From positions 6,474-30,473 of the forward strand of contig CAZHSY010000008.1 of NCBI GenBank assembly GCA_964535385.1: a DNA stretch of 24,000 nt, written 5' to 3'. Origin of the DNA: an uncultured Candidatus Saccharibacteria bacterium. Lineage in GTDB: Bacteria > Patescibacteriota > Saccharimonadia > CAILAD01 > GCA-016700035. Positions 9,031 through 10,697 of this stretch are shown here, one piece after another. Made by a program: the position numbers and the translations under genes. The notes beneath the pieces were generated by a model, which was not told the origin of the DNA, did not search any database, and was given only the letters and a program-made list of their open reading frames with translations. Every line of letters starts with the position of its first letter. Position 1 is the stretch's first letter.

Positions 9031-9100
9031 TTCCCCACCAGAGGACACAGACAATATGGACTCTGGTGGAGTCCCGACACTCAAAGGAGAGTGTCGGGAC
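9031..9100 (-). promoter_or_regulatory. double-hairpin leader module, copy B (54 nt upstream of the 85-aa ORF)
   Basis: Minus strand: GTCCCGACACTC-TCCTTT-GAGTGTCGGGAC then TCCACCAGAG-(13-nt loop)-CTCTGGTGGGGAA. It shares identical stems and junction with copy A at 9831-9896. Confidence 0.6.
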
Positions 9101-9122
9101 AAGGTGAAGGGATCGGCAACCG

Positions 9123-9791
9123 TCAGCTGACGAACAGCTTGACGCGGCTGATGAACTTGCGATGCTGATTGACCGCGTCGTTGTCCACCAAGATCCGTTG
9201 GCGCAATACCTCGCCGAGCATGACAGCCAGCTGCTCGTCCGAGAAGGACAGATACTGGCCAAGCTCGAGTTGGTGGTTCAGACCCCTCGGAAAACTACTC
9301 TCCGGTAGCATGCCAAGGAGTCGCAAGGCGCCAACGGAGAGGTACTCCCAGTCACGTTGCTTGAGCGACACCTCGCTCGGCAGCAATGCCAGGCCGTACT
9401 GGTCGAGAGCTGCCTCGATGACATCGAGACTCTTCTTGGCGATTCCGCCGGAACCCTCGAGCTCTTCACGCGACATCCAGCTGAGCTGGCCAAGCGTGGT
9501 GAAGCCACAGCGACTGAGCGTGTTGCGAATCCGACCGTCGAGTGCAGGCGACAACGGAAATGGATTATCGTTGATGCGCGGCTTGGCAGCCAAGCTATCA
9601 TCGACATCCGAGATGCTGTCACTGGTCGCAACACCACCCCACTCCTGTGACATGGTGAAGTCGACTTCGACTCCTGGCAGTGATTTCAGGTACCCAACGA
9701 AGGCGTTGAGATGGTCGAAGTGCTGCTGGACGAGTTCGGAAGCCCGGACGTTCTCGCCCGAGATGCGGATGTTGATGAGGAACGCAGGCAT
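9123..9791 (-). CDS. hypothetical protein (222 aa) with an RNA polymerase alpha-subunit C-terminal-domain-like helix-hairpin-helix
   Basis: I start it at ATG 9791, because the track start at 9950 overlaps the tmRNA 3' end and module A. LDGRIRNTLSRCGFTTLGQLSWMSREELEGSGGIAKKSLDVIEAALDQYGLAL aligns with my memory of E. coli alpha-CTD ([53 protein letters not shown]). Confidence 0.7.
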   Translation of the reverse strand: MPAFLINIRISGENVRASELVQQHFDHLNAFVGYLKSLPGVEVDFTMSQEWGGVATSDSISDVDDSLAAKPRINDNPFPLSPALDGRIRNTLSRCGFTTLGQLSWMSREELEGSGGIAKKSLDVIEAALDQYGLALLPSEVSLKQRDWEYLSVGALRLLGMLPESSFPRGLNHQLELGQYLSFSDEQLAVMLGEVLRQRILVDNDAVNQHRKFISRVKLFVS

Positions 9792-9830
9792 GCGATCCCT
9801 TTCGGTAGTAGGTACATAACTTAGCAGGGT

Positions 9831-9896
9831 TTCCCCACCAGAAGGCATAAAGATTATGAGCTCTGGTGGAGTCCCGACACCCAAAGGTGTCGGGAC
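9831..9896 (-). promoter_or_regulatory. double-hairpin leader module, copy A (5 nt after the tmRNA 3' end, 39 nt upstream of the 222-aa ORF)
   Basis: Minus strand: GTCCCGACACC-TTTG-GGTGTCGGGAC then TCCACCAGA-(loop)-TCTGGTGGGGAA. Confidence 0.6.
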
Positions 9897-9901
9897 AGTC
9901 G

Positions 9902-10253
9902 TGGAGCCGGGGGGAATCGAACCCCCGTCCAGAAAGCGAGTATTTACCACGCTACGACCATTCCTGATCTTTGAGCTTAACGGCTGCTCAGGCGACAGGT
10001 CGCCAAGCCGAATCGTCTATTCCGAATCGTCAATCAGTCTCTTCCTGATCGTCAGTCGTCTATTCCGACCGTCATTCTCCGCTTCTGTTGCCAAGCTGCG
10101 GTGAATTGGCTCCGTCCTTTTCGCTTTTGAAAGCGGATGACGATAATCGTGGCTGTTAGGCGGCGATTATTGGTGGTGCCCTGTTTTACGAGTCTGAGCA
10201 ACTCGGGTCGCGAAATAAATTCCCTTCTCTTCCTGTCGAAACCGATCGGCCCC
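9902..10253 (-). ncRNA. ssrA: transfer-messenger RNA (tmRNA)
   Basis: The minus-strand 5' end is GGGGCCGATCGGTTTCGACAGG. The 3' end GGACGGGGGTTCGATTCCCCCCGGCTCCA has a T-arm GGGGG-TTCGATT-CCCCC. The acceptor stem GGGGCCG/CGGCTCC includes the G3:U70 alanine identity pair. CUCGUAAAA precedes a short frame GCA CCA CCA AUA AUC GCC GCC UAA (10179-10156) ending in ..IIAA-stop. The CCA is not fully encoded. Confidence 0.93.
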
Positions 10254-10262
10254 AGGATGTGA

Positions 10263-10562
10263 CTACATGTGGTAGCCATTGTCGGCCAGGTCCCGCACAC
10301 GGCAGAACTGGGCCGGCGTGGAGTCGGTCGGCAGACCGGTCTCTGTGTCGAAGCTACGGATCACGTAGCGCTCGACCGGGTTGGGGTACATGCCCTCGGG
10401 CAGCCCCCAATCGTCGGCGTCCAGCGCCATGAAGCCCTCGGTGGGGATCATGTCGTGGAGCTTGAGCAGGTCCGGATGGACCGCGAGGATACTGACGAAG
10501 CCGCGATCCTCTTCTTCGCCACCCACTTCCTCGTGGGTGAGCAGGTAGATCTTGTCCGGCAT
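10263..10562 (-). CDS. hypothetical acidic protein (99 aa)
   Basis: Internal ATG at 10562 is preceded by GAAAGG. The track start at 10640 overlaps hairpin module C. Sequence: MPDKIYLLTHEEVGGEEEDRGFVSILAVHPDLLKLHDMIP... The TAG stop lies 10 nt upstream of the tmRNA 5' end. No family recognised. Confidence 0.5.
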   Translation of the reverse strand: MPDKIYLLTHEEVGGEEEDRGFVSILAVHPDLLKLHDMIPTEGFMALDADDWGLPEGMYPNPVERYVIRSFDTETGLPTDSTPAQFCRVRDLADNGYHM

Positions 10563-10629
10563 GGACTTGCCTTTCGGCTCGGGGAGGGAGAGGGCTTTCT
10601 CGCTCCGAATTATGAAGGTTCTGGGATGT

Positions 10630-10697
10630 CCCAGCCACAATGTATGAGGATTCGTACACTCTGGTTGGGCCCCGACCCCTCGTGAGAGGAGTCGGGG
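10630..10697 (-). promoter_or_regulatory. double-hairpin leader module, divergent copy C (67 nt upstream of the 99-aa ORF)
   Basis: Minus strand: CCCCGACTCCTC-TCAC-GAGGGGTCGGGG (12 bp) directly followed by CCCAACCAGAGTGTA-(10 nt)-TACATTGTGGCTGGG. It has the same two-hairpin layout and shares the CCCGAC and CCAGAG strings with copies A and B. Confidence 0.45.

Follow-up and report, generated by a model that had tools for sequence, protein, structure and literature searches.

The small-gene array and its double-hairpin modules

The DNA analysed here, a stretch of 24,000 nt from contig CAZHSY010000008.1 of an uncultured Candidatus Saccharibacteria bacterium (the whole stretch is called the window below), carries on its minus strand an array of small genes and structured RNAs in which a double-hairpin module occurs three times, as copies A, B and C. 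Read in the direction of the genes, the array runs from a TrmB-like gene through two promoters, orf115, a hammerhead ribozyme, a stretch poor in open reading frames (ORFs), module C and orf99 to the gene for the transfer-messenger RNA (tmRNA), and from there through module A, orf222, module B and orf85 to a terminator, followed by rpmF, nusB, a NUDIX gene, rnc and smc. The remainder of the window consists of housekeeping genes (LeuRS, Mur ligase, D-Ala-D-Ala ligase and others). The coordinates of all array features are collected in Table 1.

A sequence-only reading of this DNA had described three copies of a conserved double hairpin, none of them a terminator, each placed 39-67 nt upstream of a small ORF and two of them lying exactly 800 nt apart with identical strings in common, and in all these respects the description holds. 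The three copies share the minus, or gene, strand (A, 9896..9831; B, 9100..9031; C, 10697..10630), and the pattern CCCGAC-N6-24-GTCGGG-N1-10-ACCAGAG has exactly three matches in the window, which are A, B and C, all on the minus strand, while none of 100 dinucleotide-preserving shuffles contained a match; a second pattern returned the identical three sites. When folded, each copy gave two abutting hairpins, hairpin 1 (H1) and hairpin 2 (H2), at -41 to -46 kcal/mol (z from -5.4 to -6.6 against shuffles). A repeat search confirmed the offset of 800 nt between A and B and an alignment the strings common to both, GTCCCGACAC, GTGTCGGGACTCCACCAGAG and TCTGGTGGGGAA; H1 and the base of H2 are identical in sequence in these two copies, whereas the top of H2 differs by about 45%. 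The exact spacing is without counterpart in relatives and is probably incidental. Measured to the start codon, the gap downstream of the module is 39 nt for A (ATG 9791), 67 nt for C (ATG 10562) and 48 or 54 nt for B (ATG 8982 or 8976).

No U-tract follows module A, B or C, H1 being followed by UCCACCA or CCCAACC instead. A terminator scan of the minus strand gave one strong hit, the single canonical terminator at 8702-8675, and a 6-pair match in module B (9074-9058, tail ATATTGTCTG) that spans the H1/H2 junction and has no U run. An intrinsic terminator was therefore rejected as an identity for the module, since the U-tract is missing and canonical terminators are used at array ends; moreover, ORFs begin 39-67 nt downstream.

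The module family in related Saccharibacteria loci

Syntenic Candidatus Saccharibacteria loci (given numbers with the prefix L) were gathered via homologues of orf222, NusB and TrmB, and the related DNA examined amounts to about 240 kb, none of it farther than about 10 kb from the locus. The assignment to Candidatus Saccharibacteria follows from the names carried by homologues of NusB and TrmB. A covariance model, proposed as a check in the sequence-only reading, was built from eight copies (its E-values are rough, the calibration having been shortened) and revealed homologues in these loci, conserved with covariation: about 20 distinct copies in nine loci, the window included (window 3, L007 4, L011 3, L014 1, L016 1, L018 1, L020 4, L022 1 and L023 2). 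L021 holds one further copy, where its sequence is the same as the end of L020. Every one of the approximately 20 copies is on the gene strand, in the interval bounded by the TrmB-like gene and the array terminator, and no module was found by the covariance model in L015 and L017, where the array is absent between LeuRS and rpmF. The unit of TrmB plus array occurs in two genomic neighbourhoods, LeuRS/rpmF and rpsT/DHH-truB, and the modules are positionally kept across genomes whose NusB proteins are only 62-80% identical. As judged from its sequences, the family is an undescribed, conserved structured RNA.

In 17 of the 20 copies the module stands directly ahead of an ORF, at a distance of about 31-214 nt, and in an eighteenth (L018) a promoter is found between module and ORF. 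The L022 module lies 1 nt ahead of a terminator with no ORF following. The most elaborate array, that of L020, has the order tmRNA, module, ORF, tRNA-Lys, module, ORF, module, ORF, tRNA-Lys, module and canonical terminator; its four modules are nearly identical, and its two tRNA-Lys(UUU) genes (10527-10599 and 11441-11513, 914 bp apart) have diverged (their anticodon stems differ by a compensatory change), and a module comes 5 nt after each of them. In L014, a locus from which the tmRNA is absent, a B-type module precedes the homologue of orf85.

When the copies are compared, H1 is a GC-rich hairpin of 9-15 bp, variable in sequence between genomes, which starts 5 nt past tmRNA or tRNA-Lys and 0-22 nt past stop codons. 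H2 is separated from H1 by only a few bases (0-2 nt in several copies) and has a conserved base of 11 bp, CYCNACCARAG / YUYUGGUNGGG, below an AU-rich and fast-evolving top in which pairing is maintained; the H2 of module C is kept with compensatory changes in its orthologous copies (L007 4806 and L011 4530). A third hairpin (H3) of 4-6 bp has the form UGGGG-loop-CCCCR or CUGGG-loop-CCCAG, the two arms alternating together between copies. Of the 14 copies in which the hairpin was found, 11 have its start exactly at the partner of A(-1), and it is absent from both copies that precede a terminator rather than an ORF. Because the 5' arm of H3 is the G-run that closes H2, the lower part of H2 and H3 are mutually exclusive, and in modelled intact RNAs the pairing of the G-run is split between the two in many copies.

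Downstream of the hairpins two kinds of leader can be told apart. B-type leaders, of the orf85 family and others, contain an extra hairpin (H4 in module B) and a small hairpin around the Shine-Dalgarno (SD) sequence; equivalents of H4 were found in L014, L023, L007 4158, L011 4053 and L020 9987, and equivalents of the SD hairpin (GUCAC-GGAG-GUGAC and similar) in L007, L014 and L023. C-type leaders end in CCCCGAGCCGAAAGGCA before the start codons of unrelated ORFs, as in L007 (3820-3838), L011 and L016.

To assess selection on the structure, 16 sense copies were aligned to the model, giving 89.1% paired cells compared with 73.0% in shuffles, a level that none of 500 shuffles reached. Changes on both sides were seen in 16 of 24 pairs, and slid controls were only 40-55% paired. 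In a register table of 20 copies one position of the H2 base is A-U in seven copies and C-G in nine, another G-C in five and A-U in eight, and a G.U wobble is kept in 15 copies; for the H2 base in total, 26 G.U stand against 7 A.C. In 16 of 18 copies folding is more favourable for the sense strand than for the antisense strand (mean difference 7.4 kcal/mol, Wilcoxon p = 3.8e-5). These comparisons indicate that the structure of the module is under selection and that this selection is strand-specific, acting on the sense strand. That the module is an intercistronic structured RNA element, a strong new candidate absent from Rfam, is well supported.

Transcript layout and the proposed role of the module

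Consensus scans of three loci (the window, L020 and L007) placed strong promoters at two points only, immediately behind TrmB and some 500 nt beyond, the perfect TTGACA-17-TATAAT site being found at the same place in L020 (7773-7801) and L007 (1559-1587). From these promoters to the terminator, promoter matches in the three genomes reach only 9-10/12; on the minus strand of the window the sole promoter-like match between 12513 and the terminator is one of 9/12 inside orf222 (9593-9564), and the scans, which used the consensus only, revealed no promoter-like site between the modules and their ORFs in any of the three. The ORFs upstream of the tmRNA stop 9-10 nt before it, in the window as in relatives. 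The hammerhead ribozyme upstream of the array is kept in its position and is also present in L007 (3053-3107), L011 (3376-3430), L016 (3456-3510) and L023 (2547-2601), and together with the tmRNA and the two tRNA-Lys genes, each with a module directly after it, it makes the context one rich in RNA processing.

The promoter and terminator layout common to the three genomes, the distance of only 9-10 nt between upstream ORFs and tmRNA, the self-cleaving hammerhead in the same transcription unit, the place of H1 immediately behind each upstream unit and the selection on the sense strand together suggest, tentatively and short of probable, that the module is RNA punctuation, that is to say a processing and end-protection signal in a long multi-RNA transcript. 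The position of the module between the units is constant. One transcript would start at the promoters just downstream of the TrmB-like gene, run through the hammerhead, the small ORFs and the tmRNA (and the tRNA-Lys in relatives) and end at the single canonical terminator. H1, directly behind the upstream unit, would cap its 3' end against exonucleases, and H2, with its conserved basal sequence, would be the recognition helix for an endonuclease, which we infer to be RNase III or RNase P. Were the RNA cut near the 3' strand of H2, immediately 5' of the G-run, the upstream RNA would retain H1 and a shortened H2 as caps at its 3' end, and the freed G-run would then pair with the C-run just downstream to form H3, a putatively protective hairpin at the 5' end of the downstream mRNA. 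This order of cut and then refolding is proposed because H2 and H3 compete for the G-run; after the hypothetical cut the G-run folds to a hairpin 0-1 nt from the 5' end in all 15 modelled copies.

Several points weigh against the punctuation reading. Co-transcription is argued from consensus scans and spacing only, and both the nuclease and the cut site have been placed by inference. The conserved bases inside the helices would fit a protein-binding site or a site acting at the DNA level equally well. The likeness of copies within a genome speaks for recent copying, gene conversion or a recognition factor specific to the genome, and it would be explained equally well by a process at the DNA level. 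The alignment in which covariation was counted had been fitted to the model, and its copies are related and non-independent. The window's own copies A, B and C are nearly symmetric in folding on both strands. Finally, the two copies that precede only a terminator, L020 11512 and L022 9629, show that H1-H2 needs no downstream ORF.

Among known systems the nearest in function are RNase III sites of the T7 type and the repetitive extragenic palindromes (REPs) with their mosaic assemblies (bacterial interspersed mosaic elements, BIMEs), and the nearest in architecture are integron attC arrays and the put RNA of phage HK022, and the module lacks the defining features of each. In the early region of phage T7 the sites R0.3-R1.3 are RNase III hairpins between cistrons, and after the cut the upstream RNA is stabilised by the hairpin left on it. 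The module resembles these sites in being a long, irregular, mismatch-bearing hairpin structure between the cistrons of one transcript that does not terminate it, but there is no sequence similarity, the module consists of two abutting hairpins and a third that re-uses one strand, its basal helix has a conserved sequence with G.U, and cleavage is here a proposal.

If the punctuation reading is true, one Saccharibacteria transcript would supply the tmRNA, a self-cleaving ribozyme, in some cases tRNA-Lys, and small proteins, secreted or membrane-bound, of which the set varies, and its cutting and end-capping at a dedicated module would be a compact means of giving stable RNAs and mRNAs different stabilities. 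Saccharibacteria are epibionts with tiny genomes and few regulators, and operon-level RNA processing in this hard-to-study phylum would become directly testable. Whatever its function, the module marks a hypervariable gene array, the products of which may matter at the interface between host and epibiont.

The alternative that survives best, although we consider it unlikely, is a DNA-level cassette boundary, either attC-like or a reiterated att site beside tRNA and tmRNA genes, at which promoterless small cassettes would be gained, lost and shuffled. The content of the array differs greatly between relatives in which the modules persist, unrelated ORFs with the same leader follow orthologous modules, and H1 and the H2 base are homogenised within a genome. 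Modules also lie directly after the tmRNA and after both tRNA-Lys copies, and a comparison of L020 with L022 resembles an insertion of cassettes between the tmRNA-proximal and the terminal module; the corresponding comparison of cassette polymorphism between L020 and L021 is interrupted by a scaffold gap. One indel between L007 and L011 has both its end-points in the H2 of two modules, but the orf88 indel in L011 ends away from a module junction, so that a fixed recombination crossover at the H1/H2 junction fits one indel and not the other and was rejected. No recombinase, transposase, HUH or Phage_integrase family was found either among the window ORFs or among the genes tabulated for 13 related loci. 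Integron attC sites, including those of clusters lacking an integrase (CALIN), share with the module imperfect palindromes between co-oriented, promoterless small ORFs of variable content and a structure better conserved than its sequence. Since CALIN-type attC clusters lack an integrase, the missing integrase is not decisive against an attC-type site. In contrast to attC, however, the module has two hairpins instead of one, and the R''/R' cores (RYYYAAC/GTTRRRY) are absent, on either strand, from its conserved strands, for which reason attC was rejected as an identity. The G.U bias and the better folding of the sense strand favour RNA, although a folded top strand of DNA would also be possible, and H3, H4 and the SD hairpin extend the structure into the mRNA leader. 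An att-type duplication of the tmRNA 3' end was rejected as well, the shared string being only the 8-mer CUCCACCA and H1 being unlike the T-arm.

With a lower likelihood still, the module might imitate the acceptor end of tmRNA in circularly permuted form and recruit RNase P or another tRNA-end enzyme, after which the G-run would refold. In 5 of 20 copies, A and B included, the 5' strand of H2 reads CUCC-A-CCA, as the tmRNA 3' end with CCA would, and in these copies it pairs with GGGG, has a G.U at the position of G3.U70, shows a permuted connectivity and lies beside a T-arm-like H1. Processing signals of tRNA type are known from mitochondrial polycistronic transcripts, the t-elements of plant mitochondria, mascRNA and the permuted precursors of two-piece tmRNA, and the array resembles such punctuation in its alternation of tmRNA, tRNA-Lys and ORFs as well as in the likeness of the lower H2 stem with ACCA to an acceptor end. 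Unlike these signals the module has neither cloverleaf nor T-loop, its CCA is paired, most copies have C-G at the G.U position, and the stacked helix of 12-16 bp and the linker are both variable; no tRNA model matches. Were the RNase P variant true, the array would do in bacteria what tRNA punctuation does in mitochondria.

The sequence-only reading had seen a minihelix followed by CCA in H1 and the bases after it. The bases from H1 to the CCA vary (UCC, CCCA, GACCC, CC, ACUCC), a discriminator with CCA right after H1 is true of some copies and not of L020, L007 4158 or L011 4053, and the near-invariant ACCA is paired inside H2; as ARAGORN and the Rfam tRNA and tmRNA models are also silent, a tRNA-like minihelix was rejected. 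The pyrimidine-rich, anti-SD-like H1 loop to which that reading had drawn attention turned out to be specific to this genome, relatives having UUCG, UCCG, AUUCAC, ACAACC, UCUU and similar loops. Since these lack CCUCC-like sequences, sequestration of the SD by the H1 loop is not conserved. A self-cleaving motif, likewise suggested, appears unlikely because the conserved bases are found in helices and not in a loop or junction core, and no Rfam ribozyme family matches the modules. From the list of roles, the RNase processing signal and the cassette boundary thus remain as leading candidates and SD sequestration by the loop drops out; H3, the H4 and SD hairpin of module B, the upstream hammerhead and the likely single transcription unit had not been part of that reading.

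Translational control of the downstream ORF, with a leader that governs access to the SD through the H1 anti-SD loop or an H2/H3 switch, is improbable. It would agree with the placing of 17 of 20 copies directly before an ORF, with the conserved small hairpin enclosing the SD in B-type leaders and with the alternative pairing of H2 base and H3, which resembles an expression platform. Besides the unconserved loops, the occurrence of H1-H2 without any downstream ORF at the two terminator-only copies speaks against it, as does the distance of 31-84 nt between H2/H3 and the start codon in most copies, clear of the SD; there are no conserved unpaired nucleotides of the kind that form a ligand pocket, and the local SD hairpins lie outside H1 and H2.

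Held to be just as improbable is a role at the level of transcription, in which H1 would be a partial attenuator without U-tract, governing how much stable RNA is made relative to downstream mRNA, or H1-H2 a put-like antiterminator. The put antiterminator RNA of HK022 consists of two stem-loops inside the transcript that abut with almost no spacer, as do the two hairpins of the module, which lie 0-2 nt apart in several copies; H1 stands directly behind highly expressed stable RNAs, and ORFs follow in this operon although it is filled with hairpins. The array-end terminators of the organism, however, have canonical U-tracts, a tail that H1 lacks, and the terminal copies are followed within 1-2 nt by a terminator that, to all appearance, ought to function. 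The module further differs from put in occurring many times per operon, and there is no likeness to put, EAR or nut/boxA sequences and no Rfam match at E<=10.

Very improbable, finally, is a selfish or neutral repeat (like a REP, a BIME or a miniature inverted-repeat transposable element) spread in intergenic spaces without specific function, for which the near-identical, palindromic, GC-rich copies within a genome and the presence of a different dispersed palindromic repeat in the window (12624-12674 and 22324-22443) could be cited, but which is opposed by the confinement of the copies to one locus and one orientation within the DNA examined, by their positional conservation between genomes, by compensatory changes and H3 covariation that point to selection on structure, and by the absence of terminal inverted repeats, target duplications and GTAG-type heads. 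The REPs of enterobacteria, which stabilise mRNA between cistrons, occur as hundreds of dispersed copies in both orientations, with a GTAG head and partner RAYT transposases. As a stabiliser of the REP/BIME kind the module is similar in being a repeated GC-rich intercistronic palindrome just past the upstream cistron and alike within a genome, and different in its single locus, fixed orientation and second conserved hairpin; no RAYT-like gene was found among the window proteins. The translational, transcription-level and selfish-repeat explanations each account for less of the data than RNA punctuation does.

With Rfam 15 at gathering score only the tmRNA and Hammerhead_3 pass in the window and no module is matched, and at E<=10 the best matches to the modules are Scr3202 with 27 bits (gathering score 52) and gyrA RNA with 21.6 bits (gathering score 45). 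Exact-pattern matches in genome and metagenome contigs, in Pseudonocardia (an FhaA-like coding sequence) and in AT-rich contigs resembling the candidate phyla radiation (after ftsQ), were rejected; the 3' strand of H2 is absent from them, the covariance model gives at most 15-17 bits, and they were treated as chance. This pattern demanded the H1 of this genome itself, so true relatives were beyond its reach. In phage records no DNA match was found, orf222 is absent from IMG/VR and five IMG/VR pattern matches all fail the covariance model; the module thus does not appear to be detectably phage-borne.

Features of the array and its surroundings

Table 1. Positions of array genes, module hairpins and transcription signals in the window
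Feature	Position	Strand	Remarks
TrmB-like gene	13911..13162	-	head of the array region
Promoter, perfect consensus TTGACA-17-TATAAT	13098..13126	-	directly past the TrmB-like stop codon
Promoter-like site TTGACA-17-TACACT with TG	12513..12541	-	consensus scan
Hammerhead ribozyme, type III	11584..11638	-	Rfam RF00008, 48.7 bits (gathering score 48.5)
Module C H1	10670..10697	-	CCCCGACUCCUC / UCAC / GAGGGGUCGGGG; sequence, fold, pattern match
Module C H2	10630..10669	-	base CCCAACCAGAG / UUGUGGCUGGG, apical part 18 nt
Module C H3	10621..10634	-	CUGGG-ACAU-CCCAG; 5' arm shared with the final 5 nt of the 3' strand of H2
Leader string CCCCGAGCCGAAAGGCA	10568..10584	-	contains the orf99 SD
orf99	10263..10562	-	small ORF, ends 9 nt ahead of the tmRNA
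tmRNA gene	9899..10253	-	Rfam RF00023, 118.8 bits; ARAGORN
Module A H1	9871..9896	-	GUCCCGACACC / UUUG / GGUGUCGGGAC; begins 5 nt past the tmRNA discriminator base
Module A H2	9833..9871	-	base CUCCACCAGAG / UUCUGGUGGGG
Module A H3 (weak)	9826..9837	-	UGGGG-AAA-CCCU
orf222	9123..9791	-	protein with RNA polymerase alpha C-terminal domain (CTD)-like domain, residues ~83-147
Module B H1	9071..9100	-	GUCCCGACACUC / UCCUUU / GAGUGUCGGGAC; begins 22 nt past the orf222 stop
Module B H2	9033..9071	-	base CUCCACCAGAG / CUCUGGUGGGG
Module B H3 (weak)	9023..9037	-	UGGGGA-AGA-UCCUCA
Module B leader hairpin H4	9001..9020	-	CGGCU...AGCCG
SD hairpin	8982..8995	-	UCACC-UGGA-GGUGA around the orf85 SD GGAGGUG; read from sequence
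orf85	8719..8976	-	small membrane protein
Canonical intrinsic terminator with U-tract	8675..8702	-	11 pairs; proposed end of the transcription unit

Searches of Pfam, NCBIfam and PDB with the small ORFs showed a recognisable domain in orf222 alone, where the match to Pfam PF03118 (E=6.4e-05) lies just under the curated cutoff and PDB hits are to the RpoA CTD. Orthologues of orf222, 54% identical, were found in L007, L008 and L011, and the gene lies beside the tmRNA in the window, L007, L011 and L018. The product of orf99 belongs to no Pfam or NCBIfam family and has six homologous representative clusters among 1.84 billion representative proteins. The homologues of orf85, L014 orf102 and L023 orf113, each have a B-type module ahead of them.

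The tmRNA gene does not encode the CCA and ends in CUCCA-CGA. Its tag (10156-10179, minus strand) reads GCA CCA CCA AUA AUC GCC GCC UAA, giving APPIIAA*, and relatives have APKIIAA* and ATLINAA*. Tags of tmRNA usually end in AA-stop, as the frames of the window and its relatives do, and the tag peptide DSAWRPVA* given by ARAGORN looks wrong. At the place where relatives carry a full tmRNA, L023 has a 50-nt "mini-tmRNA" (4225-4274) that consists of acceptor stem and T-arm only (GGGGCCG...GGGGGGUUCGAUUCCCCCCGGCUCCACCA), with the CCA encoded. The string GGCAACAGAAG, situated inside the pseudoknot region of the tmRNA at 10082-10092 (minus strand), recurs outside it at 11779-11789 (minus strand) and is found in relatives at L020 8602, 8752, 9277, 9802 and 10496 and also in L021, L018, L007, L011 and L023. 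Outside the tmRNA it usually occurs as GGGGCC...GGCCUGGCAACAGAAG, just after small ORFs or ahead of hammerhead or tRNA-Lys, and this recurrence may represent a second repeated RNA element of the array.

The ORF-poor stretch between orf115 and module C (10700-12066, minus strand, about 1.3 kb) contains several blocks kept in L007 and L011, among them a long palindrome at 11429-11494, and the hammerhead is the only Rfam match there. In L021 three hammerheads (~8800-8860, ~9410-9478 and ~10030-10095) are part of a tandem unit of ORF plus ribozyme of about 620 bp. A literature search revealed no work linking Saccharibacteria with hammerhead ribozymes, and the co-mentions of tmRNA that were read were software citations.

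Two further repeats were seen in the window. The palindromic repeat TACAAGGCCAGGCCTACC..GGTAGGCCTGGCCTTGTA has arms of up to 24 bp and is REP-like and dispersed, with a single copy close to the array promoters (12624-12674) and three that overlap one another some 9.7 kb from it (22324-22443). The other is an intergenic element of about 125 nt, both copies of which (1225-1362 and 3291-3428, minus strand, 88% identity) lie upstream of an ORF without assigned function, one copy just downstream of the KH-domain gene and one just downstream of smc.

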